This document shows positions 3,522-18,684 of a stretch of 47,701 bases of DNA, piece after piece (position 1 is the first letter of the stretch; each line of letters opens with the position of its first letter). The notes beneath the pieces were generated by a model, which saw nothing but the letters and a program-made list of their open reading frames with translations, ran no database searches and had not been told where the DNA came from. Source of the stretch: an uncultured Bacilli bacterium. GTDB taxonomy: Bacteria; Bacillota_I; Bacilli_A; RF39; UBA660. Location: the NCBI GenBank assembly GCA_944363595.1, contig CALVUN010000006.1, forward strand, positions 1 to 47,701. Reading direction: 5' to 3'. The position numbers and the translations under genes are program-made.

Positions 3522-3543
3522 ACATCGGATGTAAAACTTATAA
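3502..3543. repeat. Left attachment site of element 1
   Basis: GTCATT-N12-GG-a-CATCGGATGTAAAACTTATAA. Confidence 0.85.
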
Positions 3544-3570
3544 CATTTTTTTAAACTAAAAGAAACCTTA

Positions 3571-4761
3571 TTAGGCTTCTTCAATTATTTTCTTTAATCT
3601 ATTTATTTGTCTATTTAAAAGAACACATAATCTATATATTCTTTTATCAGATATTTTAGTAATACTTTGATACTTATGTAATAACTTATCAAATTCTTCA
3701 GGTATATCAGATAGTTTTTCTACATCTATTCTTTTAATATTATGAACTACTTTAATAATTTCATCAAATGGTTTTACCTCGTAAAAAAATCTTCCATGTC
3801 CTGATATGATTACTTCTTCTTCATCATAATATGGAATATTTAAAGCCATACCATTATCAAATATAGGAGTAACATCTAACCATTTTAGAGTATTAACATC
3901 TCTTATAATACCAAAGTTATTTAAGTGTCTATCTTCATTCATGATAAGAAAATCTAAAATATACATATTTTCTACTTTTTCTCTAGCATTAAAAATATCG
4001 TTTTTCTCAAGACATTTAATATATTCTTCATAATCTTCTTCACTATCATATCTTTTCATATCATTTCTTATTTGATAGGCTGTAATAAGTTCTGTATCTT
4101 TAGTTATAAAACAAGGACATTTAGATACTACGGTATCTTTATAAACATCTAAAGTATAAGGAACATGATTAAAACCTAATCTATCACATATCATAGATGC
4201 TAAAACTTCATTGAATGGTTGTAATATTTCATTTTTATAACCACCTTTTAATAGGTATCTTGTACCATCTTCAATAATCCATGCTTTTTTTAACATACCA
4301 TCAGTGGTATTATTAGGTGTTATAAGAGAAGTTTCTTTTTTTACTATCTTACTATTAAGTGAAAGTGAGGCTTCTAAAAACTCAGCATAATCAAAATCAT
4401 TATCAAAAAAATTAATATCATCATACTTTATATTACTGTTAAAGGGTTTTAACCAATATTGATCCGATAAAGATAAACCGAAAGCTTTATCTAATAATTC
4501 AGTTGGAGCACTTATATCTAGACGATGTAATAATAAATCTAATTTGTCTCTCCAAGAAGGAATACCTCTTCCTCTAAACCACTCCGACAAATTTGTTCTA
4601 AAAAATGTATCATTTATATCATCTTTAATATAAAAACTCTTTAAAATATAGGGAGCATAATCAATATTCTTAACTTCTATAATTCTATCAAAAAATTTAG
4701 AAACTGTATTATATTCTGCAACTAATACTTCTGTATTTTTATTCATTAAAATACATTTCAT
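3571..4761 (-). CDS. HipA-like Ser/Thr kinase domain protein
   Basis: DGMLKKAW...YLLK, NEDRHLNNFG and PIFDNG kinase motifs; AAGGTG RBS before ATG 4761 (ORF track 4767). Confidence 0.8.
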   Translation of the reverse strand: MKCILMNKNTEVLVAEYNTVSKFFDRIIEVKNIDYAPYILKSFYIKDDINDTFFRTNLSEWFRGRGIPSWRDKLDLLLHRLDISAPTELLDKAFGLSLSDQYWLKPFNSNIKYDDINFFDNDFDYAEFLEASLSLNSKIVKKETSLITPNNTTDGMLKKAWIIEDGTRYLLKGGYKNEILQPFNEVLASMICDRLGFNHVPYTLDVYKDTVVSKCPCFITKDTELITAYQIRNDMKRYDSEEDYEEYIKCLEKNDIFNAREKVENMYILDFLIMNEDRHLNNFGIIRDVNTLKWLDVTPIFDNGMALNIPYYDEEEVIISGHGRFFYEVKPFDEIIKVVHNIKRIDVEKLSDIPEEFDKLLHKYQSITKISDKRIYRLCVLLNRQINRLKKIIEEA

Positions 4762-4821
4762 AACCACACCTTCTTCCTAATGTAATATGTATTATTATAC
4801 CATATTTGCCTATATTTTTCA

Positions 4822-6384
4822 TTAATATAGTTTGAATTTATAGTGGATTTCTATAGTTTTATCTTCACTTATAAGTATCTTATCAATTAGATTTACTAAT
4901 AAATTTCTACTTGGCTTTTCAAAAAATAAATATTCGTTTATCTTTTTTAATATTTCACCCTTTTCATTATTATCATTTACCAAATCAATATTTTTAAGTT
5001 CATCTTCTAATTCTTTTTTTCTACTTTTCAACTGTTCTATCTCATCTTTATATTTGCTAGTTAAACGTTTAAACATTGCCATATCAATATTACCATTTAA
5101 CCTATCTTCATATATTTTATCTATATATGAGTTATTAGTTCTAATTTTATTATCTAATATATTGATTTCCTTTTGTTTTTTTATTTTTATATTATTTTTC
5201 TTTCTTACCTCTTCTAACTTATAAAAAAATAAACTACTATCTACATACTCCTTACACATTTTTTTAATTTCTTCTAACACAAGGTTTTCCAATTTTTTAT
5301 AATTACAACTGTGTGGAGTACATAAACCATATTTAGAATGAGATATATAGTAAGTACAACAACAGTAATATCTTTTACCATCACTACTTTTATTTATCCC
5401 TATTGCGTGTCCACATTCTTTACATACCATAAAGCCAGAAAGTAATTGAATATTATTACCAGTAGGTTTATTTTTGTTTTTTTTTAACAATTCCCCTACT
5501 GTATCAAATATTTTTTTATCAATTATTGCCTCATGAGTATTTTCTGTAATTATCCACTCATCTTTAGATGTTCTAATTTCTTTTTTTGACTTATAATTTA
5601 ACTTTTTTCTTCTACCTTGAGTTAAATTTCCAATATAAGTTTCATTAGTAAGCATTTCTTCAATAGTTCTAGGGCACCATAAACCATAAGCTGTAGATTT
5701 CATACCTCTATTAAGATTTGCATAAACACTTGGAGTAGGAATATGCTCATCAGAGAATATATTAGCAATTTGTCTTGGACTTTTACCCTCAATTACTAAA
5801 TTAAACATTCGCTCAATAATAGGTCTAATTTCCTCATCAACAATAATTTTATATTTATCATTAGGATCTTTTTTATAGCCATATACTGCTTTCCAACCCA
5901 AAAACTGTCCCTGTTCTTTTTTTGATCTCACGACTTTTCTAATTTTTTTAGATGTATCTTTTAAATAGTAATCATTAAACATTAATTTAAATTGTAAAAA
6001 CTCTAAACCTGGTGTTTCATGTAATGTATCAATATCATCATTTATAGCAATATATCTTATACCTCGTTCAGGAAATATTCTCTCTATATATTCCCCCATT
6101 GAAATATAATCCCTACCCATACGAGATAAATCTTTGGTAATTATAGTATTAACTTTACCACTATCAATATCTGCCATTAGTCTTTTCCAAGAAGGTCTAT
6201 CAAAATTAGAACCAGTAAAACCATCATCGACATACTCATCAATATATTGTAATTTTTCTTTTGTTTTCTCTAAGAATAAATGTAATAAATCTCTTTGATT
6301 TGTAATACTCTCACTTTCCATATTATCGCCATCTTCACGAGATAACCTAATATAAAGAGCAACATTAAATGTCTTACCATTCAT
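4822..6384 (-). CDS. Large serine recombinase (element 1)
   Basis: YIRLS catalytic Ser, DDGFTGSNFDRP, KDLSRMGR, recombinase domain, CKEC...C...C zinc ribbon, coiled coil; intact 520 aa. Confidence 0.95.
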   Translation of the reverse strand: MNGKTFNVALYIRLSREDGDNMESESITNQRDLLHLFLEKTKEKLQYIDEYVDDGFTGSNFDRPSWKRLMADIDSGKVNTIITKDLSRMGRDYISMGEYIERIFPERGIRYIAINDDIDTLHETPGLEFLQFKLMFNDYYLKDTSKKIRKVVRSKKEQGQFLGWKAVYGYKKDPNDKYKIIVDEEIRPIIERMFNLVIEGKSPRQIANIFSDEHIPTPSVYANLNRGMKSTAYGLWCPRTIEEMLTNETYIGNLTQGRRKKLNYKSKKEIRTSKDEWIITENTHEAIIDKKIFDTVGELLKKNKNKPTGNNIQLLSGFMVCKECGHAIGINKSSDGKRYYCCCTYYISHSKYGLCTPHSCNYKKLENLVLEEIKKMCKEYVDSSLFFYKLEEVRKKNNIKIKKQKEINILDNKIRTNNSYIDKIYEDRLNGNIDMAMFKRLTSKYKDEIEQLKSRKKELEDELKNIDLVNDNNEKGEILKKINEYLFFEKPSRNLLVNLIDKILISEDKTIEIHYKFKLY

Positions 6385-6419
6385 CTTTTAACTCCATTTC
6401 ATAATAAATAAAAAACATC

Positions 6420-6524
6420 TTATTTTTTAAAAGAAGTAATATCCAAGCAATAATCAATCAAAAAAAACTCAATAATATCTTGAAGAGTTTTACCTTTTTC
6501 ATTAAAGACATTAACAATTTTCAT
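6420..6524 (-). CDS. 34-aa small ORF upstream of recombinase 1 (candidate RDF)
   Basis: GGGTGG RBS; MKIVNVFNEKGKTLQDIIEFFLIDYCLDITSFKK*; below the ORF-track size cutoff. Confidence 0.55.
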   Translation of the reverse strand: MKIVNVFNEKGKTLQDIIEFFLIDYCLDITSFKK

Positions 6525-6622
6525 AGAACCACCCAATTAAATTTATGATTTAATTAAAATTTATAATACTAAGAATTAAAATAAAACTATTTAATTACCA
6601 TAAATATCCCAAAAAAATTACA

Positions 6623-6664
6623 TTATAAGTTTTGTATCCGATGGGGTGGTATGCCCGAAATGAC
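6623..6664. repeat. Right attachment site of element 1
   Basis: TTATAAGTTTTGTATCCGATG-g-GG-N12-AATGAC. Confidence 0.85.
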
Positions 6665-7211
6665 TTTTGAATGGGCACTTAGAGAAAATAATATTGACCC
6701 CAATAAAGATTTAACTATCGATACATCCATTGATTTTGCCGCAATGCAAGGAGCATTCATTGGAGGAACAGGTGATTTTGTTACTTTGTTTGAACCTAAT
6801 GCTTTAGCTGTCGAACAAGCAGGATATGGTCATGTTGTTGCCTATATTGGCGATTTAGCGGGCGTTGTTCCATATACAGCATACAATGCCAGAAAAAGTT
6901 ATATTGAAAACAATCCCGAAATAATAGAAAAATTCACTAGAGCTGTTAATCGCGGTTTAGAATACGTTAAAAACAATGATGCCTTTACTATAGCCACTTC
7001 CATTGTTAACTTCTTTCCCGATACATCAATTGATGACTTAACCAAAATGATTGAAAGATATAAAGAAGGTGGAGCTTGGAAAGACAATATTACTATTAAT
7101 GAAGAAGAATGGAATCATATTCAAGACATTGTAATTGCCGCAGGAGAATTAGAAGAAAAAGTTCCATTCGAAGACTTAATTTATACTAAATACTTTAATG
7201 AATATGAATGA
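6647..7211 (+). CDS. ytlA: NitT/TauT ABC substrate-binding protein, 3' half of a split gene
   Basis: GMPEMTFEW...LFEP...VPYTAY; joined to 3088-3521 it gives 999 bp, 332 aa. Confidence 0.85.
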
Positions 7212-7622
7212 TATCTTAAAAATAGAAAAGCTCCATAAAAAATATTATACAAAACAAGGTGAAATAACCGCAATTAAGGAAATATCTCTCAATATTAAAG
7301 AAGGAGAATTTGTATCCATTGTAGGACCATCAGGATGTGGAAAGTCAACTCTTCTATCTATATTATGCGGTTTAACAGAAAAAACAAATGGTCAAATAAC
7401 ATTCCCTAATCCAAATAAAAAAAAATTAGGATATATGCTCCAACAAGATTGTCTTTTTCCTTGGTTAACAATTCTAGATAACTGTCTTTTAGGACTAAAA
7501 GTAGAAAAAAAACTAACTAAAGAAAAAAAAGAACAAGTTATAAACCTGTTAACAACATATGGACTAAAAGATTTTATATATAAATATCCCAAAAGCTTAT
7601 CAGGAGGTATGCGTCAAAGAGT
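7198..7622 (+). CDS. ytlC: NitT/TauT ABC ATPase, 5' part of a split gene
   Basis: Walker A GPSGCGKST and LSGGMRQRV signature, then element-derived TGA at 7627-7629; start may be ATG 7204. Confidence 0.88.
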
Positions 7623-7647
7623 TGCTTGAATATAATATAGACACAAA
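7614..7647. repeat. Left attachment site of element 2
   Basis: TCAAAGAGTTGCTT core continuing into GAATATAATATAGACACAAA. Confidence 0.85.
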
Positions 7648-7736
7648 GTAATGATTAAGAAAAGTTGCTTATAACTTATAAAATAAGAAAAAAAAGTAAA
7701 ATATGTTGTTAGATAAAAGTAATTGATTTATTAAAT

Positions 7737-8072
7737 ATGTTTGATAATTTAAAGAATAAAAATAAGGCTAGACTTGCAATATATCTATTAGAAAATAAAA
7801 ACTTTGATATTAATTTTAATATTAAAGATAAAAATATAATTATTCTTTTAAAAGAAGTATTAAATAAATTAGATCCAAATTATAGTAAAACTATTGTTAA
7901 TTTTACTAAATATAAGAACTTATTATTTATTTCAGCCAAGTATTTAGAACTAAGTGAAAAAGAAAAGAAAAACTTTTCAATAATATCTTTAAAACTGATT
8001 TTAAGGATAACATTATCAATAAAGAGTTTAATAAACATCTATGTGTATATGATTATTGTTATGCCGTTTTAA
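7737..8072 (+). CDS. Hypothetical protein (possibly a decayed remnant)
   Basis: 111-aa AT-rich ORF with no clear RBS or motif. Confidence 0.3.
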   Translation: MFDNLKNKNKARLAIYLLENKNFDINFNIKDKNIIILLKEVLNKLDPNYSKTIVNFTKYKNLLFISAKYLELSEKEKKNFSIISLKLILRITLSIKSLINIYVYMIIVMPF

Positions 8073-8087
8073 ATAAAAAAATAAAAT

Positions 8088-8113
8088 CCTAGTAGTCTTT
8101 AATGACTATTAGG
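8088..8113. terminator. Bidirectional terminator-like hairpin
   Basis: CCTAGTAGTC-N6-GACTATTAGG flanked by A- and T-tracts, between convergent ORFs. Confidence 0.6.
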
Positions 8114-8114
8114 G

Positions 8115-9074
8115 TTATTTTTTTAGTCTGCTACTTTCCTGCATGCTTAAATCAAAATCATTAGGTATAATATCGCCAGCTGTATAGCCCATATCTCTTG
8201 CTTTTTTTTGAATCAAATCATACATTATATCTATTTCAAAAAAAGATATACCTTTGCTAGCAATAGTTCCTTATATTGCAATTCCGTATTCACTTGTCAT
8301 ATTAGGATTATCATAAGGATTCGTTCCATTAGTAATTGAAACATCAAATGCTTTTAATAATTGTTCAAAATTATGCAAATTATCTAATTTTGATTTCAAC
8401 TCTTCACCACTTAATTTTCCATCTCTTAATCCTTCAACATCACCGAAACTTGCTTTATTATTTAAAACATTTTCAAATGGTATTAAATAAATTCTATTTT
8501 TTCCATTACAAAAATTACTTGCTAATCTTTTTGCTCTAGCTAATGCTTCACTTCTTCTTTCCATTGGAAAATTATCAAATTGAGAGATTTGATAATCTAA
8601 AACTCTACAATAAAAGTCAGATTCGTTTTCGCCAACAATTGGTTGGATTGGCAAACTATGATTAGAGGAGCATTGAAAAACATCTTCTAAAATACCTGTG
8701 GAAAAAGTTTGCATACCATAATTAAATTCAGTAGTTCCTAAAAGTGTTGTATATAAAATTGATAAATGGTTATCTGAATAATTAATTGTTTTTCCAAAAC
8801 ATTAAGCGATATATTTTGCATCTTCAATATCTTGTGCAGAAAATTTTAAGTTTGATAAACCATTTGTATTAACTTAATTATTAAAATAACTACTCATTCC
8901 ACTTGCTAAAAAAGGCATTGATTATGATAAATTATATTTTTGTAATAACATAAGCATTTCATAATACTCATTTGATTCATATAATTGTTGTAATTGTGTG
9001 TTTAATTCCACTGCTTTGTTTGAAACTCTTAAAAATTTTGCAATAATTGTTTTTATATAATCCACATTAAACAT
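8115..9074 (-). pseudogene. Pseudogene of an approximately 319-aa hypothetical protein
   Basis: AGGAG RBS and ATG at 9074; a single frame runs to TAA at 8115-8117 with four internal TAA (8922-24, 8874-76, 8802-04, 8271-73); includes track ORF 8271..8714. Confidence 0.7.
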
Positions 9075-9170
9075 ACTCCTAAATATTGATATACTTCATA
9101 TTTATTTAATACTATTAATAATTTTTTTATATTAACATGAAAAAGGGAATATTCTCTTTTAAACTTAACA

Positions 9171-10520
9171 TTATTTTATACTATATGTTCTAATTTCTTC
9201 ATTTTCCAATTTATTTAATGCAATCTTTTTATCACTAAATTCCCAATCAATTTGATAATCAGGTAGCAATTTGGATTTAATAGGGTTAATTCTTAGAATT
9301 AAAATAACTGCTTCAAATTTATTTAATAATTTTAAATCTTCAACAGTAATTAGTGGTTCAATTCCTTTTTCAGTTTGTTGATTTCCACATAGTTTAGATA
9401 TATCTTCTAGTGTTTCAGTATCGTTTGCTAATAAGTAAACAATATTTCCAAACACCATTTTTAATATTTCAGTTCCCTCTGCACCATAAGTATTTCTTAA
9501 TTCTAATATACTTCTTATAAAAATACTAAACTTAATATTAAAACTTCTTGCAAGTGTAAGCATATTATCGAAATCCTTAATAGGAATTAAGTTTTCAAAA
9601 TCATCAATTAAAACATTTAATCTACGAGTTTTATCATTAGTATATGTTGCAGCATAATAACATTCTTCAATTATTAAAGGAATTAATCTTCTAGAAGTTG
9701 ATTTGTTATTACTTATAATAAATAATGCAGTTTTATCTTTTTGGATATTTATCATATCAAAGTTAGATGAAGATAACATTTTTAATAATTTTTCTCTTGA
9801 TAAAAATAATCTCATATTTTGAATAAATAATGATAGAATACCACCTTTTGTTTCGTTTGGCGCTAATATAATATTGGAAAGATTAATATATGTAGGAGAA
9901 GTCTTATCATATTTTTTTACTTCTTCTGATAATTTATCAAATTCAGATACTAGATTTAATAAACTACTAATATTTACTTCTTCCTCTTTTGCATTGTCAA
10001 ATAGATATAGTGAAAGTCCTATAAATAAAGAGGTAGCAGAATTATTCCAAAATGGATCAAAGCTTGCATTAAATGTTTCCTTGCAACAAAAATAATAACC
10101 TACATTTTCTAGTAACTCTATTGCTTTATCTTTTTGACCATTTTTATATAATTCATAAGGTAAACTTAATGGATTATAATTATTACCAAGAGTAGGATTG
10201 TCTAAATTGATTACGATAGTATTGTATTTTTGCTTTTTTAATTCTCCTGATAAAATATCATAAATTTCTCCTTTTACATCATGAACGATAAATGACTCTT
10301 GTGCTTTAATTGCAAGTCTTAATTGTGGTAGTAATATTAATTGAGTCTTACCACTACCAGTTGAGCCGATAACCATTGTATGAGCTTCATCATCTTTAAT
10401 ATAAAGATTATTTTCATCATACATCATAGGTATTCCTGATTTTTTAATTTCAGAATCATAACTGATTTGGGTTAGTTTTGATTTCAATTCTTCAACTGTT
10501 GCCCATCTTGAATATGCCAT
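9171..10520 (-). CDS. VirD4/TraG-like coupling-protein ATPase without an N-terminal membrane anchor
   Basis: HTMVIGSTGSGKT, IVHDVKGE, DPFWNNSA, degenerate Walker B LIDDFENL, ARSFNI. Confidence 0.8.
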   Translation of the reverse strand: MAYSRWATVEELKSKLTQISYDSEIKKSGIPMMYDENNLYIKDDEAHTMVIGSTGSGKTQLILLPQLRLAIKAQESFIVHDVKGEIYDILSGELKKQKYNTIVINLDNPTLGNNYNPLSLPYELYKNGQKDKAIELLENVGYYFCCKETFNASFDPFWNNSATSLFIGLSLYLFDNAKEEEVNISSLLNLVSEFDKLSEEVKKYDKTSPTYINLSNIILAPNETKGGILSLFIQNMRLFLSREKLLKMLSSSNFDMINIQKDKTALFIISNNKSTSRRLIPLIIEECYYAATYTNDKTRRLNVLIDDFENLIPIKDFDNMLTLARSFNIKFSIFIRSILELRNTYGAEGTEILKMVFGNIVYLLANDTETLEDISKLCGNQQTEKGIEPLITVEDLKLLNKFEAVILILRINPIKSKLLPDYQIDWEFSDKKIALNKLENEEIRTYSIK

Positions 10521-10630
10521 GCATATCACTTCCTTTCAATAACATTATATCATCTACAATTTATTGCACTTAAACAAAAATGGCTTTTTATAAATATTCG
10601 TGATATAATATAAATTATGTGGGTGATAAT

Positions 10631-11095
10631 ATGTTTTCAAATGATTTAGTTTGTAATATAATTGAATACATAAACAATAATATAAATAAAGAAATTACCA
10701 TTGATGAATTGAGTATACTATTTTATTTCAACAAAACATATATAATGAAAAAATTTAAAAAAGAATTAAAAATATCTATACACGAATATATAAATATAAT
10801 GAGAATATATAATAGCTTGCCATATTTTAAGGATGATAATTATATTCTAAGTATCGCATTTAAAAACGGCTTTAATTCGTTAGAATACTTTTCTGAAATA
10901 TTCAAAAAAAATATGGGTGTTAGTCCAAAGGTTTATAAAAAATATTCAAATTATAAAAACATTACTGATGAAGAACAAGAAAAAATCCTAAATAATTTAT
11001 CTAGAATTATTAACATCAAAACAAGTGTTTTAAACTATTTAAATCATAGAAAACCTGTTGTTAGTAACTATGTTAAAAAATTTGAACTTAAATAA
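10631..11095 (+). CDS. AraC-family HTH regulator (DNA-binding domain only)
   Basis: IAFKNGFNSLEYFSEIFKKNMGVSPKVY AraC signature; GGTGA RBS before ATG 10631. Confidence 0.85.
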   Translation: MFSNDLVCNIIEYINNNINKEITIDELSILFYFNKTYIMKKFKKELKISIHEYINIMRIYNSLPYFKDDNYILSIAFKNGFNSLEYFSEIFKKNMGVSPKVYKKYSNYKNITDEEQEKILNNLSRIINIKTSVLNYLNHRKPVVSNYVKKFELK

Positions 11096-11100
11096 TATTA

Positions 11101-11350
11101 TTATTCTTTGAAAATTACGTCAACATCTCTTGCTAGTTTAATTTCAACTACTTTTTCAAGATATGGAACAATATCAGTATCATAATTACAAATTGTATTT
11201 AATTGAAATATACTGAAATTATCAGAATTATTAGTATAATCATCATTTTCTTCGCCAGAGAAAAGCCTCCAACCACTATCAATTTCATTAGTATAGTTTT
11301 ATCTATACATATAACCAACTTTTTGTCCATCAATAGTAATTTGCTATACA
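11101..11350 (-). pseudogene. DUF2185/Imm33-like immunity protein remnant
   Basis: Manual translation ITIDGQKVGYMYR*NYTNEIDSGWRLFSGEENDDY...LNTICNYDTDIVPYL; internal TAA at 11299-11301; 5' end broken. Confidence 0.7.
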
Positions 11351-11769
11351 ACCATTTTTAGAAGCAGGTATAAACGATTCTAAACCTATCTGTGCAACTT
11401 TAAATAGTACAGTTTCAAGTAATGCATCATTATTTATATTTCTAGTATTAATTTCATTTATAAGATTTGATAAAAACATTTGCATGCTTTTGAAAGTTAA
11501 AGTAAAGTATGAATGATTACTATTTTTTCTAACCCAACAAAATAATTATTATTGGTATTCTTTGCGACCATTCCATTCACCATTCAATGCATATCTTTTC
11601 GTATTGCTTCATATAATTTTGTTATTGTTTCAATTGTTTTTTTTAAATTCTTCAAGTGTTTTAGGATATGCTTTTGCATTTGAATTGAAACGTCTTTCAT
11701 GATTTGTTATGTTTTATTTATATATTTGTATCAGAACACAATCAAACCAAGAACTTATCAAATAAAAGA

Positions 11770-11811
11770 AAAAAATATCTTAACTATGCTTGAACATAAT
11801 ATAGACACAAA
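11770..11811. repeat. Internal degenerate attP-like junction of element 2
   Basis: 11787-11811 matches 7623-7647 at 24/25; the preceding AAAAAATATCTTAACTA resembles the right arm AAAAAGTGTCTTAACCA; about 12 bp of core is missing. Confidence 0.75.
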
Positions 11812-11820
11812 ATAGAAAAG

Positions 11821-12027
11821 TCATCTAATAACAATAAAACCCAAATCTTCTATTTTATCAATTACTTCATTAATAACCTTATCTTTTTTAACTTCAATAA
11901 CTAATTTCTTACTTTCAAAGGAAATATCATAACTAATTATCCCCTTAACTGTGGATAAAACATTCTTAATACGATTAATACATCCATCACAATGTATACC
12001 ATCTATCAACAATTCATATCTTTTCAT
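11821..12027 (-). CDS. copZ: Heavy-metal chaperone (HMA domain)
   Basis: 68 aa with GIHCDGC motif, downstream of the Cu ATPase. Confidence 0.85.
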   Translation of the reverse strand: MKRYELLIDGIHCDGCINRIKNVLSTVKGIISYDISFESKKLVIEVKKDKVINEVIDKIEDLGFIVIR

Positions 12028-14204
12028 TATTTCACTCTCCTTAACCTTAAAGAATTTAAGACCACTGTCAAACTACTTATTGTCATAGCAATACTACCAA
12101 ACATAGGACTCATATTGATTCCAAAACTACTAAAAAATCCCATAGCAATAGGTATCATACATATATTATAAAAGAAAGCCCAAAACATATTTTGCTTAAT
12201 TATTTTATAAGATTTCTTACTAATATATATTAAATCCAAAATATTACCCATATCATTATTCATAAGAATAACTTTAGCACTGTCCATAGCAACATCAGTT
12301 CCATCATTAACACTAACCCCAATTGTGGCATTAACCAAAGATGGTGCATCATTAATACCATCCCCAACCATAATAACCTTTTTACCATCATCGACTAAAG
12401 ACTTAATAAATTGAGCTTTCTCTTTAGGAATAACATCAGCCTTAACATTAGTAATCCCAAGTTCCTTTGCTACAATTAAAGCTGTCTTTTCATTATCACC
12501 TGTTAACATAATAACATCAATATTTTGTTTTGTAAACTTATTTATTACATTCTTCATATTCTTTCTAACAATATCTTTAACACCAAATAATCCAATAATA
12601 CTACTATTTTCCGCTATAAATATAATACTACAACCACTCTCTAACAAATTTTGATAATCATCATCATTAACATTACTAATTTTCAATTTCTTAAGCATTC
12701 TATCATTACCTAAATAATATTTATTACCACTAATTTCACCATAAATTCCCATTCCATCTAAATTCTTAAAATTAATAACATTTACTTTTTTCTTAATTTC
12801 AAAAGCACTACTAATAGGATGTGTTGATATTTTTTCAATATTAGCAACTAAATTAACAAGTTCACTATCCGTATATTTACTATAATTATATATTTTAAAC
12901 AATTTTAACTTACCATAAGTTAAAGTACCCGTTTTATCAAAAACAACCGTATCAATATTTCTAGCTTTTTCAATTACCTCACCATCTCGCAAAAATAAAC
13001 CTTTCTTAGCACAAATACCATTACTAACAACGACCACTAAAGGAACAGCCAGCCCAATAGCACAAGGACAAGCTACAACTAATACCGTAACCATATGAAT
13101 TAAAGAATCATTAAAATTAGTGCCCAATAATAAATGAACAATCAAAGTCAACACTGCAAGTAACAATATAATAGGTACAAAATATCCACTTATTTTATCC
13201 GCAAGTCTTTGAATTTTATTTTTCCCATTAGTGGCATTAACTACTAATTTTACTATCTCAGAAATAGTAGAATCCCGTCCTATTTTTTTAGCCTTATATT
13301 CAATATAACCATTATAACTAATTGAACCAGCAATTACTTTACTATCAATATCTTTTAAAACTGGTTCACTTTCTCCTGTAATAAAACTTTCATCAACATA
13401 AGATTTTCCCTTTACAACAATACCATCACAAGCTACTTTATCACCTGCTCTACATACTAAAACATCATCAATTTTAACTTCATCAATACCTATTTCTTTA
13501 ATTTCATTGCCATCCTTAAGCAATGCTTTCTGTGGTGTAATTTGTACCAATTGTTTAATTGCATCTTTAGTCTTATCCTTACTTATACTCTCAATATAGC
13601 GACCCAATTTAACAAAATAAATCACCATACAAGAAGCATCAAAATATAAATTATGTAAATAACTAATATCACCTAATAAAATATTAATATAACCATATAA
13701 ACTATATAAAAAGCTAAATGTAACACTAAATGTAACTAAAGTATCCATATTAGGCATTAAATGATATAAATTTTTAATTCCACTTTTAATTATATCTAAG
13801 CCATACCAAATAAACACCATAGTAACTATCAACATAAAAGAAGATAAAACAATAGGATTTTCATGATTAATCAAATATATACTAGGTAATCCTAACATAT
13901 ATCCCATCGATACATACATCAAAAAAATAATTAAAAGACCCAATAAAACTAATTTAACAATATCTTTACTATTAGTCTCACTATCCATTACCCCTTTAAA
14001 TTCCCCTAAACTATTAAATCCAGCATCTCTAACATATTTTTCAATATCTTTGATTTTAATACCATCATACAATACTGAAGCCGTACTTAAAACTAAATTA
14101 ACATTAGCCTCTTTAATACCCTTTTGCTTATTAAGATATTTTTCTAATCCCGATGAACAAGCACTACAAGTCATACCACCAATCTTTAAAGTAATTTTTT
14201 TCAT
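12027..14204 (-). CDS. copA: Copper-type P1B ATPase
   Basis: GMTCSAC, TGES, ACPC, DKTGT, HP, GDGINDAP, YN and MxxSS motifs. Confidence 0.92.
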   Translation of the reverse strand: MKKITLKIGGMTCSACSSGLEKYLNKQKGIKEANVNLVLSTASVLYDGIKIKDIEKYVRDAGFNSLGEFKGVMDSETNSKDIVKLVLLGLLIIFLMYVSMGYMLGLPSIYLINHENPIVLSSFMLIVTMVFIWYGLDIIKSGIKNLYHLMPNMDTLVTFSVTFSFLYSLYGYINILLGDISYLHNLYFDASCMVIYFVKLGRYIESISKDKTKDAIKQLVQITPQKALLKDGNEIKEIGIDEVKIDDVLVCRAGDKVACDGIVVKGKSYVDESFITGESEPVLKDIDSKVIAGSISYNGYIEYKAKKIGRDSTISEIVKLVVNATNGKNKIQRLADKISGYFVPIILLLAVLTLIVHLLLGTNFNDSLIHMVTVLVVACPCAIGLAVPLVVVVSNGICAKKGLFLRDGEVIEKARNIDTVVFDKTGTLTYGKLKLFKIYNYSKYTDSELVNLVANIEKISTHPISSAFEIKKKVNVINFKNLDGMGIYGEISGNKYYLGNDRMLKKLKISNVNDDDYQNLLESGCSIIFIAENSSIIGLFGVKDIVRKNMKNVINKFTKQNIDVIMLTGDNEKTALIVAKELGITNVKADVIPKEKAQFIKSLVDDGKKVIMVGDGINDAPSLVNATIGVSVNDGTDVAMDSAKVILMNNDMGNILDLIYISKKSYKIIKQNMFWAFFYNICMIPIAMGFFSSFGINMSPMFGSIAMTISSLTVVLNSLRLRRVK

Positions 14205-14210
14205 AATATT

Positions 14211-16064
14211 TTACTCCCTAACACCTAAAATTCTAAAAGCATTTAAAATAGCTATAACTGAAACCCCAACATCAGCAAAAACCGCAGCCCACATACTAGT
14301 AACCCCAATTGCACTCAATATTAAAACTAAAACTTTTACCACTATTGCAAAAACAATATTTTCTCTTACAATCATCATTGTTTTTCTAGATATATTAATA
14401 GCACTTGCAACCTTAGAAGGTTCATCAGTCATAATAACTATATCAGCAGCTTCAATCGCTGCATCACTACCTAATCCTCCCATAGCAATACCTATATCAG
14501 ATAAAGCCAAAACAGGAGCATCATTAATACCATCACCAATAAAGACCAATTTACCCTTTTCACTTTTTTGTTGCATAAACTTTTGAACTAAATTAACCTT
14601 ATCCTGTGGTAACAACTCCGCATAATATTCATTCAAATCTAATTTCTTAGCAACTTCCTTACTAATACTTTCTATATCACCAGTTAACATAATTATCTTT
14701 TTAACACCATTTTCTCTAAATAATTTAACAGCTAAAAAAGCATCATCCTTAATTTTATCTGCAATAACAATATTACCAGCATATTCACCATCTATTGCCA
14801 CATAAACAACCGTACCCATATCATTACACTCTTCATATTTAATCTTATATGCTTTCATTAATTTATCATTACCAACAAGAACATCTTTTTTAAAAACAGA
14901 TGCATAAATACCCTTACCAGATACTTCTTTAGTTTTAGTAATAACTTTATTATTAATATTTTTACCATAAGCATCCTTCAAAGATAAAGCAATAGGATGA
15001 TTAGAAAATTTTTCCGCATAAGCAGCATATTTTAATAAATCATCTTTACTATATTTATTAACATTAACCTTTTGTACCTTAAACACCCCTTCAGTTAAAG
15101 TACCCGTTTTATCACAAACAACAATTTCTGTTTCCGATAAAGCCTCTAAATAATTACTACCTTTTATCAAAACTCCATTTTTAGATGATGCTCCAATTCC
15201 TCCAAAAAAACTTAAAGGAATCGATATAACCAAAGCACAAGGACAAGATACAACTAAAAAAGATAAAGCACGATATATCCACTCACTAAAAGAAGTATTT
15301 TCTATTAATAAAGGAGGAATAAATGCCAAAAACAAAGCAATAATTACTACGATTGGAGTATAATATTTAGCAAATTTACTAATAAAATTCTCCGATTTTG
15401 CTTTTCTACTACTAGCATTTTCAACTAAATCTAAAATTTTACTAACAGTAGATTCACCAAATTCCTTTTTTACCCTAATTTTCAAAGTACCATCATTGTT
15501 AATACAACCACTTAATACCTCATCTAAAACTTTTACTCTTCTTGGTAGAGATTCACCCGTTAAAGCAACCGTATTTAACATTGCCACACCATCTACAACA
15601 ACACCATCCAAAGGAATTTTTTCTCCTGGCTTAACTAAAATAATATCATCAATACCAACTTCATCAGGTGAAACTTTAACTACTTCATCACCACGATAAA
15701 CATTAGCATAATCAGGACGAATATCCATAAGTTTAGCTACCGATTTCCTTGACTTATCAACAGCATAACTCTGAAACAATTCACCAACTTGATAAAATAA
15801 CATTACTGCAACAGCTTCCGTATATTCACTGATAAAAAAAGCTCCAACAGTAGCAATACTCATCAAAAAATTCTCATCAAATACTTTACCACGAATAATA
15901 TTTCTTATAGCTTTTAACATAATGTCATATCCAACAATTATATATGCAATCACATATAAAATAATATTAATTAAATTATTATCAAAATTAATTAACAAAA
16001 GCAATAAAACTAAAAAGAAAGATATAATAATTCTAATTAACTTATTAATCATCTTCTTATCCAC
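14211..16064 (-). CDS. cadA: Cd/Zn/Pb-type P1B ATPase lacking an N-terminal metal-binding domain
   Basis: SCPC, DKTGT, GDGINDAP, TM Lys and ADVG motifs; GGAGG RBS before GTG 16064 (track opens at 16088). Confidence 0.9.
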   Translation of the reverse strand: MDKKMINKLIRIIISFFLVLLLLLINFDNNLINIILYVIAYIIVGYDIMLKAIRNIIRGKVFDENFLMSIATVGAFFISEYTEAVAVMLFYQVGELFQSYAVDKSRKSVAKLMDIRPDYANVYRGDEVVKVSPDEVGIDDIILVKPGEKIPLDGVVVDGVAMLNTVALTGESLPRRVKVLDEVLSGCINNDGTLKIRVKKEFGESTVSKILDLVENASSRKAKSENFISKFAKYYTPIVVIIALFLAFIPPLLIENTSFSEWIYRALSFLVVSCPCALVISIPLSFFGGIGASSKNGVLIKGSNYLEALSETEIVVCDKTGTLTEGVFKVQKVNVNKYSKDDLLKYAAYAEKFSNHPIALSLKDAYGKNINNKVITKTKEVSGKGIYASVFKKDVLVGNDKLMKAYKIKYEECNDMGTVVYVAIDGEYAGNIVIADKIKDDAFLAVKLFRENGVKKIIMLTGDIESISKEVAKKLDLNEYYAELLPQDKVNLVQKFMQQKSEKGKLVFIGDGINDAPVLALSDIGIAMGGLGSDAAIEAADIVIMTDEPSKVASAINISRKTMMIVRENIVFAIVVKVLVLILSAIGVTSMWAAVFADVGVSVIAILNAFRILGVRE

Positions 16065-16065
16065 A

Positions 16066-16299
16066 CTATACCTCCTCAATAGTAACATCTGGTTCTTCTT
16101 TTTTTATTACTTTTTTAATACTTTCTAAAGCTATATTCTTATTCTCTTTATCACACTCAAAAATTAGTTTTCCCGTAATAAAACTAATACTTACATTATT
16201 AATAATATCTATTTTACTTAAAGAATTTTCTAATTCAATTGCACAATTAACACAATCTAATCCCTTAATATTACATTTAATTTTCTTCACATTAAACAC
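16066..16299 (-). CDS. Stand-alone HMA-domain protein
   Basis: GLDCVNCA motif; probable start GTG 16290; resembles the detached N-domain of CadA. Confidence 0.8.
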   Translation of the reverse strand: MFNVKKIKCNIKGLDCVNCAIELENSLSKIDIINNVSISFITGKLIFECDKENKNIALESIKKVIKKEEPDVTIEEV

Positions 16300-16657
16300 C
16301 TCTTTCTTTAATATGTTCTAAACCAATTTCAAATAATTTAAAAATATGATCATCATCTAAAGTATAATAAACTTCCTTACCACTTTTACGGCATCTAACA
16401 ATACCACTTCTCCTAAGTACCGCTAGTTGATGTGAAACAGAAGATTTAGTCATATTCAAAACATTAGACAAATCACATACACACATTTCCCTCTGATCAA
16501 GAGCAAATAATATGCGACACCTAGTAGTATCACCAATCAATTTAAACAAATCAGCAAGATGATTAAAAATATTTTCATTAGGCATTTTCCCCAACACATC
16601 ATAAACAGCATCTTCATGAATAATATTACAATCACAACTAAATTCATTACGAGCCAT
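16292..16657 (-). CDS. cadC: ArsR/SmtB (CadC-like) metal-sensing repressor
   Basis: EMCVCDL, SVSHQLAVLR, YYTLDDDHI...LEHI; first gene of the metal operon. Confidence 0.85.
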   Translation of the reverse strand: MARNEFSCDCNIIHEDAVYDVLGKMPNENIFNHLADLFKLIGDTTRCRILFALDQREMCVCDLSNVLNMTKSSVSHQLAVLRRSGIVRCRKSGKEVYYTLDDDHIFKLFEIGLEHIKERGV

Positions 16658-16684
16658 ATAAACACCTCCTTAAATATCTAAAAC

Positions 16685-16740
16685 AATTGAACAACTACTC
16701 AACTATAAACATTATAATTGAAAAAGCATTCAATTGTCAA
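16685..16740 (-). promoter_or_regulatory. Metal-operon promoter with two ArsR/SmtB operator boxes
   Basis: TTGACA (16735-40)-N18-TATAAT (16711-16); perfect AATTGAA-N6-TTCAATT at 16716-16735 and an imperfect copy at 16685-16704. Confidence 0.8.
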
Positions 16741-16939
16741 TACCTATTTTAACTTTTATAATAAATATAATTGTAAATTATTACATCAGTTATTATATAC
16801 AAAGTTATTTACATTTTATAAAATAAACAATCATATAAATCAACAACTTATGTAAGTTTTAATTATTATAGTTTCAATAATTTTTACTACATTTTTTTAT
16901 TTTATTGTAATATATTTTAATAAAGAAAAGAGGTAACTT

Positions 16940-17085: not shown

Positions 17086-18684
17086 ATGAATAATAATGAA
17101 AAAAAATTAAAAGTAGGTATTTATTTAAGATTATCTAATGAAGATAAAGATAAAAACAATAAAAAAGATGATAGTGAATCTATCAAAAACCAAAGAAATA
17201 TGCTTATTCAATATATAAATAAATACCCTAATTTTATTTTAATAGATGAATATTGTGATGAAGATTTATCAGGCGCAGGAACATATCGACCTGAATTTGA
17301 AAGGTTAATAAAAGATTGTGAAAAACATAAACTAGACATTGTTTTATGTAAAAGTCAATCTAGATTTTCAAGAGATATGGAAATAGTAGAAAAATATATA
17401 AATAATAAATTTAAAGAATGGAATATAAGATTTATAAGTTTATCTGACAATGCTGACACTGAAATATTAGGAAATAAAAAATCAAGACAAATAAATGGAC
17501 TTGTCAATGAATGGTATTTAGAAGACGTTTCAAATAATATAAGAAGTGCTTTTAATTCCAAAATGAAACAAGGAGAATTAATATCACCATTTGCCCCCTT
17601 TGGTTATGAAATATCCCCAAATAATAATAATAAATTAATAGTAGATCCCATTGCCAAAGAAATTGTTAAAAAAATATATAATTTATATTTAACAGGTTTA
17701 GGATATACATCCATTGCCAAATATTTAAATAAATATCAAATCCCTTGCCCTTCTCTTTATAAATACCAAAAGGGCATTAAATTAAATATAAATAGTAATA
17801 AACCACGCGAAAAAATAAAATGGAATACTAACGCAATTAAAACAATTTTAACAAATGAAGTATATATAGGTAATTTAATCCAAGGAAAAAGAACCACTGT
17901 TAGTTATAAAAACCATAAAATTAAAATTAAAGATAAAAAAGATTGGATAAAAATTAAAAACACCCATGAAGCAATTATTGATGAAGAAACATTTAATAAA
18001 GTACAATTTACAATAAAACAAAGAACTAAGCCTAATAAAAAAACAGGTATAGTTCATTTTTTCTCTGGAAAAGCATATTGTCTAGAATGCAATCATTATA
18101 TGCGAAAAAAGAATTCTTCTAAACATGAATATTTAGTATGTTCTAATAATCGTGATGGATATAACGATTGTTTAAATAAAACTTCCATTAGATATGATGT
18201 ATTAGCAAATCTAGTATTAGGGGCAATAAATAATAAAATTGAAAAATTTTATGACGAAGAAGAATTAGAAAATTTAGATTCAAAAAAACTTGATAACAGA
18301 TTCAAGAAAAAAATTAAATCTTTAGTGGCTCTTAGAACTGATATTGAAAATAAAATATCTAAAACTAAAAATTATTTAAAAAATATTTATGAAGATAAAG
18401 TAAATGGTATTATTACACTAAAACAATTTAAAGATTTAATTACCAATTATAATAAAGACGAAGATAATTATAAAGATCAAATTAAATTAATAAATAATGA
18501 AATATCCCATTATAGAATGAAAGAAGAATCTGGGAAAAAAAATAAAGAAATATTCAAAAAATACCAAAAATTAGAAGAATTAAATAGAGTTGTTGTTGAT
18601 GAATTTATTGATAAAATTTATATTGGTAAATTAAACGAAGAAACAAATACTAGAGATATTCAAATTAAATGGAATTTTGAATAA
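17086..18684 (+). CDS. Large serine recombinase (element 2)
   Basis: YLRLS, DEDLSGAGTYRP, KSQSRFSR, CLEC...C...C zinc ribbon, coiled coil; intact 532 aa. Confidence 0.95.
   Translation: MNNNEKKLKVGIYLRLSNEDKDKNNKKDDSESIKNQRNMLIQYINKYPNFILIDEYCDEDLSGAGTYRPEFERLIKDCEKHKLDIVLCKSQSRFSRDMEIVEKYINNKFKEWNIRFISLSDNADTEILGNKKSRQINGLVNEWYLEDVSNNIRSAFNSKMKQGELISPFAPFGYEISPNNNNKLIVDPIAKEIVKKIYNLYLTGLGYTSIAKYLNKYQIPCPSLYKYQKGIKLNINSNKPREKIKWNTNAIKTILTNEVYIGNLIQGKRTTVSYKNHKIKIKDKKDWIKIKNTHEAIIDEETFNKVQFTIKQRTKPNKKTGIVHFFSGKAYCLECNHYMRKKNSSKHEYLVCSNNRDGYNDCLNKTSIRYDVLANLVLGAINNKIEKFYDEEELENLDSKKLDNRFKKKIKSLVALRTDIENKISKTKNYLKNIYEDKVNGIITLKQFKDLITNYNKDEDNYKDQIKLINNEISHYRMKEESGKKNKEIFKKYQKLEELNRVVVDEFIDKIYIGKLNEETNTRDIQIKWNFE

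Follow-up and report, generated by a model that had tools for sequence, protein, structure and literature searches.

The window, that is the whole stretch of 47,701 nucleotides analysed here, derives from a genome bin of 1.25 Mb with 27% G+C, and close matches to it occur in four chicken-gut metagenome runs of one study. The relatives compared, designated by G for the genome and by L for the locus within the comparison set, are uncultured Bacilli, Candidatus Faecisoma, Scybalousia and Onthousia, which we take to belong to the order RF39. An ABC importer operon, consisting of an NMT1/THI5-like binding protein, an ATPase and a permease, is split in the window at two places. The larger interruption is a 12.06-kb insert in the ATPase gene, lying between GT 7621-7622 and GT 19683-19684. 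The 5' half of this putative ytlC (7198-7622, plus strand; PF00005) has the crossover GT 7621-7622 as its 3' end, while the 3' half (19685-20018, plus strand) is homologous to the intact genes of G025, G004 and G035; when the insert is removed in silico, the two halves form an open frame of 252 aa, so that excision would restore the gene. In some relatives the 3' half has a further break or insertion, about 52-58 codons past the GT in L029 (G027), L030 (G003), L095 and L124, and about 22 codons past it in L113, L173 and L174; the extra insert in the ATPase gene of G027 holds LSR-like sequence. Just 3' of the permease gene, ISL3 transposase fragments are found in the window at 20821-21537. The second interruption is a separate element of 3.1 kb (3522-6646), identified by Pfam, with genes for a large serine recombinase (LSR) and a HipA-like protein; it splits the binding-protein gene, has a 520-aa LSR, inverted arms and a GG crossover, and the gene halves around it rejoin to 332 aa. 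Its LSR is 34% identical to that of the 12-kb insert, and this operon seems to be a hotspot targeted by LSRs of several specificities.

The right-hand part of the 12-kb insert starts with a metal cargo on the minus strand (11821-16657; Pfam matches, with TIGR01511 and TIGR01512 above cut-off), comprising a CopZ-like chaperone, a Cu-type and a Cd/Zn-type P1B ATPase, an HMA protein and an ArsR regulator. An LSR of 532 aa follows on the plus strand (17086-18684); it has an open frame with the Resolvase, Recombinase and Zn-ribbon domains that define an LSR element, together with DUF4368. Its best match among plasmids is 37% identical and uninformative. Between the LSR and attR lies a Bro-N family gene (18828-19612, plus strand), which is broken by one stop and one frameshift; a Bro-N gene in this position recurs in several of the elements examined. 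No directionality factor was identified in the element, and the Bro-N protein, broken in the window, is a candidate for a regulator or a directionality factor.

Elements of this family enter the ATPase gene at the same codon, where 47 P' arms and 54 P arms, all distinct, were collected among 212 loci. The family attP is symmetric, with outer motifs 17 bp on either side of the GT; in the B' arm the same outer motif lies 5 bp nearer the centre, while the B arm is without a clear shifted motif. The geometry expected for an LSR element, a symmetric attP with the motif nearer the centre in attB, is thus present with the shift in B' alone. Both outer sites of the window are intact: the P' arm of attL at 7623-7647 (plus strand; matrix score 27.1, consensus from 47 distinct arms) and the P arm of attR with its GT crossover 19683-19684 at 19656-19684 (plus strand; matrix score 25.4). 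Since attL, attR and the LSR are all intact, the recombinase is predicted to be able to excise the whole 12 kb and to rejoin the gene. Excision joints, partial or whole, are absent from the matches listed (15 of 156 contigs), which counts neither way, and the intact-attP pattern gave 0 matches in viral contigs. Outside the ABC ATPase gene, secondary targets are seen in L163 (2488 and 12591), L075, L103 and L199 (G290), both element ends of L163 lying within another gene. At L102:5825 and L119:17935 the element ends meet the 5' gene half in inverted orientation, which is unexpected with a non-palindromic GT core.

Between attL and the metal cargo lies a left module (7648-11769), a decayed, CIME-like mosaic that lacks a recombinase and whose left end is that of the ytlC elements of G030, G401, G425 and G427; in particular, complete elements of G030, G401 and others have 7623-8135 as their left end. 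A tblastn search with the LSR against 7648-11786 gave no match, Pfam scanning of the module ORFs was also without a recombinase, and no LSR remnant was found in the module. The absence of its own recombinase agrees with the definition of a CIME; the retention of both att sites does not, attL being intact and the right-hand site truncated, and the module is better termed a remnant because of this truncation. A VirD4-like coupling-protein gene (9171-10529, minus strand; PF02534, with NF045973 below cut-off) and an AraC-family regulator (10619-11095, plus strand; PF00165, PF12833) form a block with homologs of 79-89% in other genomes, where no att arm was found within the fetched stretch; a relaxase was not found among the ORFs scanned with Pfam, the VirD4-like gene being present. 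In L242, L243 and L244 (G273, G294 and G224) the block (window 9016-11360, 88-89%) adjoins the 3' third of LSR genes that are 83-87% identical to that of the window, and this adjacency suggests that the block travels with the LSR family. The match to Bro-N in the left module is weak (E 0.36). Further to the right lies a pseudogene (11351-11710, minus strand), the remnant of a 661-aa gene that G425 retains intact in its left module; tblastn shows 58% identity and 4 stops. It is followed by a likely remnant of an element right end (11720-11769, plus strand), which aligns weakly to the right ends of relatives: its top score, 50, was also reached by the highest of 1,540 shuffles, and an nhmmer profile of 20 right ends matches 11725-11771 in register, weakly, at E 1.4. 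From these alignments, 11720-11769 is likely to be a right-end terminus that was fused to the pseudogene through a deletion.

The two modules meet at 11770-11811, where the remnant of a P arm is fused to a copy of the left att arm and the GT crossover is lost. The outer part of the P arm (11770-11786, plus strand) has an altered G at -20, and the inner 10 bp and the GT are deleted; the internal P' arm (11787-11811, plus strand) starts right after the missing GT position and forms the left terminus of the metal module. Several details put forward in the initial annotation hold true: 11787-11811 is identical to 7623-7647 at 24 of 25 positions; the site lies between the decayed left module and the stop of copZ, which starts 9 bp past the arm (11821); and about 12 bp including the GT are missing, as the gapped alignment that best fits the att arms of the element itself gives a 12-bp deletion, with an end point ambiguous by 1 bp. 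Only two places in the genome (1.25 Mb, both strands) lie within 1 mismatch of the arm, 7623-7647 and 11787-11811, and the next best has 6. The P remnant is weak by itself, a 17-nt attR probe having 17 genome sites within 3 mismatches; a matrix of the outer arm, derived from 6 attR arms that include the window's own, gives scores as high at only 8 of 2,493,362 genome positions, of which the one in the scar adjoins the P' copy. The three transitions that had been reported relative to the attR arm are present, but two of them are normal alleles of the family, an A at -22 being found in 10 of the 54 P arms and a T at -12 in 36 of them. The third, G to A at -20, affects an invariant base (G in 54/54 P arms), and the lone change in the P' copy hits a base kept in 46 of 47 arms; therefore, the decay of the scar goes beyond the 12-bp deletion. 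The possibility that the window's own attR arm is the closest to the P remnant was considered and rejected, since three other arms of the family are nearer (2 mismatches versus 3). With the GT gone and the outer P motif 12 bp too near the centre, the scar is predicted to be inactive. The chimeric internal site, its core deleted, is oriented like attL and attR, as in a tandem composite, and the evidence supports its description as a third, attP-like junction between two separable modules.

It is highly improbable that such a junction is a chance match or a misassembly. The bin is a low-coverage metagenome bin and, among the contigs listed, only one, from run X4, bridges the junction, with 31 letters on its left side; this contig, covering 11739-11985, has 0 differences from the window, a result that can be read only as a check of the assembly because X4 may be the source sample. 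Against an artefact stand this agreement, the uniqueness of the arm copy in the genome and the homologs of both module ends, with the same boundaries, in other genomes.

The relatives were compared through 136 LSR-anchored loci, the best 80 of 115 from genomes plus 56 from metagenomes, in which attL is present in 46 cases, attR in 84 and both in 37. An intact internal P-GT-P' site, which the initial annotation had proposed to seek in relatives, was found in four of these 136 loci (genomic ones being the best 80 of 115), namely L095, L106, L126 and L181. The arrangement with the right module alone, also proposed there, is found as well, the metal module lying directly at attL in two relatives: in G001, of the same genus, attL is followed by a homolog of 11787-16757 at 81%, and in L139 the metal genes follow attL inside a single LSR element of 8.5 kb. 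Together with the homologous left module of G425, these loci indicate that the modules are separable and have other partners; among the relatives compared, no strain was found with exactly the left module alone or with the window's array and an intact core. In L095, a single-contig chromosome of 1.31 Mb, the order is attL, LSR, Bro-N, intact site, metal genes, split LSR and attR; its arm-pair test (9 versus 10 mismatches) does not separate site-specific from homologous joining. In G425 (L126/L238), a module without LSR follows attL, and an intact site comes next; to the right of this site lie a cation-ATPase module and an LSR with 68% identity to that of the window. The left module shares window 7585-7915 and 11307-11720. 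Its outer P' and inner P match the arm pair of a single element within 1 mismatch, as opposed to 6 under a model of homologous recombination, and site-specific joining is therefore favoured in G425. Three of the intact-site loci have attR in view, and in these the internal P arm differs from the terminal one, as do the flanks; co-assembly of a circle with its integrated copy thus does not account for these arrays. Damaged internal sites were also found, so that three of seven are damaged, the window included: that of G010 (L022/L209, G010:C11) is a full-length P-P' with an altered, near-palindromic core, 6 bp from the attL arm, and that of G153, located at a contig start, has a 1-bp deletion. 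Weak internal matches in L104 and L123 were judged to be due to chance. A search of 401 family genomes, an even sample, for P and P' separated by a gap of 0-26 bp gave 8 matches against 2 in the control, and none of the 8 resembled an att site when its letters were inspected; this pattern is blind to the damaged sites of the window, G010 and G153. Undamaged internal sites are therefore rare in this sample, and arrays uncommon.

The claim of tandem accretion at the right junction of an earlier element is supported by G001, L139 and the four intact internal sites. In our judgement the scar is probably the damaged junction of two tandem LSR islands, where the metal island joined the right side of an older one devoid of recombinase, and the loss of 12 bp was not selected. 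A resident island without recombinase would have been decaying inside the ABC ATPase gene when the metal island, with its LSR, integrated at the right junction of the resident, giving a hybrid P-P' joint; this joint would have lost 12 bp either at the joining or by later decay. The left module is likely to have arrived before the metal module, since the homologous left module of G425 has a right partner other than that of the window. The metal half begins at what we take to be the top-strand cut position of a serine recombinase; this start hints at the repair of an aborted recombination, a reading that, with one case, is suggestive only. The integrase of phiC31 gives almost no recombination of attP with attL or attR (PMC2475636), and the proposed joining step is thus non-canonical.

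The similarity of the arms fits this sequence of events less well. The two P' arms of the window differ at 1 of 25 positions, whereas those of four other arrays differ at 6, 7, 9 and 11; of the 1,081 pairs that the distinct P' arms of the family form, only 6 are as alike, and two independent islands do not readily explain such near-identity. Either co-circulating elements in the host share arms or the arm was copied at the joining. In an alternative that we consider unlikely, homology-driven recombination or repair at the P' arm brought in the left module or rebuilt it, and the same event copied the resident arm and clipped the incoming attP. It would account for the 25-bp direct repeat made by the two arms and for the fact that the attL arm of the window has its nearest match, with 2 mismatches, in the metal-type arm of G001, the P' arms of several elements sharing its left end being 5 mismatches away, and it needs no non-canonical pairing by an LSR. 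However, 25 bp is short for homologous recombination, G425 contains a homologous left module in a clean site-specific hybrid, and co-circulating elements of one host lineage may share arms, the sampling being one genome per species. A further, tentative possibility is that the LSR family has a relaxed site selectivity, so that circles enter occupied attL or attR sites and build P-P' arrays, and that these pairings often abort and leave scars; nonetheless, the attP and the B' arm of the family follow the pattern of phage integrases.

The initial annotation had seen in the deletion of the core a lock-in, selected for gene restoration, by which the whole 12 kb must leave as one unit. In this scheme the deletion was favoured because an intact internal site let the half bearing the LSR leave, stranding the island without LSR in the gene; the proposed benefit may be gene restoration or the keeping of the metal genes. 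The outer att sites and the LSR are indeed intact, the ATPase halves rejoin in frame, and the 3' half is open in 32 of the 37 loci with both ends in view (among the best 80 of 115 genomic loci and 56 metagenomic ones). Moreover, the three damaged internal sites are affected at or beside the core, truncated att sites stabilise some composite islands according to PMC8978831, and L095 is weakened as a counter-example, its ATPase 3' half breaking after 58 codons. Selection is, nevertheless, quite unlikely and finds no support in the comparison, as intact sites persist in four relatives, in G425 beside a homologous left module without LSR, and decay is general, with arm bases and neighbouring genes affected as well: two near-invariant arm bases, a pseudogene with 4 stops, large deletions and a broken Bro-N gene are found near the scar. 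Canonical LSRs would seldom pair P-P' with attL or attR and, given that phiC31 integrase barely recombines such sites, there was perhaps little partial excision to block. The operon is split again upstream, and restoration of the transporter needs a second excision; in addition, one lesion in one genome cannot demonstrate selection. Departure as one unit would not be obligatory either, since the 25-bp direct repeat could allow the left module to be dropped by homology. The lock-in logic applies solely to departure of the LSR-bearing right module; loss of the left module would leave an ordinary element of the G001 type. As internal sites of this kind are preserved intact in relatives, the scar is likely the product of ordinary decay of a composite island.

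A single scar has little weight, and its value lies in pointing to natural LSR arrays, with at least seven internal sites, intact or damaged. These arrays would permit a direct test of whether the LSR accepts attL or attR as a target, a property that bears on LSR directionality and on the use of this recombinase for repeated integration. What remains of interest is that an LSR with att geometry of the phage type forms tandem arrays at all. If relaxed selectivity were true, the family would offer a natural series in which to study loosened LSR directionality; a selected lock-in, if shown, would neatly illustrate how a host or an element can stabilise a composite, although the comparative data lean against it.

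Tandem accretion of CIMEs with ICEs or IMEs in streptococci is reportedly the subject of work by Pavlovic (2004) and Bellanger (2011). Two reviews (PMC5704250, PMC7563491) describe a decayed CIME in tandem with an incoming element, the two being joined through a chimeric internal site, and propose for streptococci the order of a resident element, its decay and a new integration at attR; such tandems are reported also in Streptococcus suis and Faecalibacterium (PMC7168690, PMC12084326). The window resembles these cases in the presence of an integrase-less, decayed element beside an active one and of a chimeric internal att site, while the streptococcal examples given there have tyrosine integrases and lie at gene ends; here an LSR is found and a coding gene is split, and no relaxase gene was found among the ORFs scanned. 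A search of open-access papers retrieved neither a paper on this element family nor one on internal LSR sites with a deleted core.

In staphylococcal SCC, LSR-driven composites with internal att boundaries are common (bioRxiv 10.64898/2026.03.31.715619). Tandem LSR cassettes, internal att boundaries, crossover at a central dinucleotide and islands without recombinase are shared with these CcrAB/CcrC systems in that account; conversely, the LSR of the window scores about 90 bits against Ccr models having a cut-off of 700-900, and it splits an ABC ATPase gene instead of occupying the 3' end of rlmH, so that the element is not an SCC. With the integrases of phiC31 and LI/A118 the family shares (PMC2475636, PMC3783163) the domain set, the symmetric attP and the shift of the B' motif, the outer motif of phage serine integrases being 5 bp nearer the centre in the attB arm (PMC3783163). 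Differently from these phages, the window element has no phage genes and, differently from phiC31, whose integrase does not perform such reactions productively, the arrays of the relatives would need pairing of attP with attL or attR, or of attP with attP. As with SPbeta in spsM and skin in sigK (PMC4191935, PMC5025042), the insert lies within a gene and its excision would rejoin the frame; unlike for those two elements, nothing here points to regulated excision, to a directionality factor or to the restored gene being needed. Stabilisation of some composite islands by truncated att sites is mentioned in PMC8978831, which cites Bellanger 2014. Thus, both tandem accretion and stabilisation through truncated att sites are already known, and the window is a further case of that kind.
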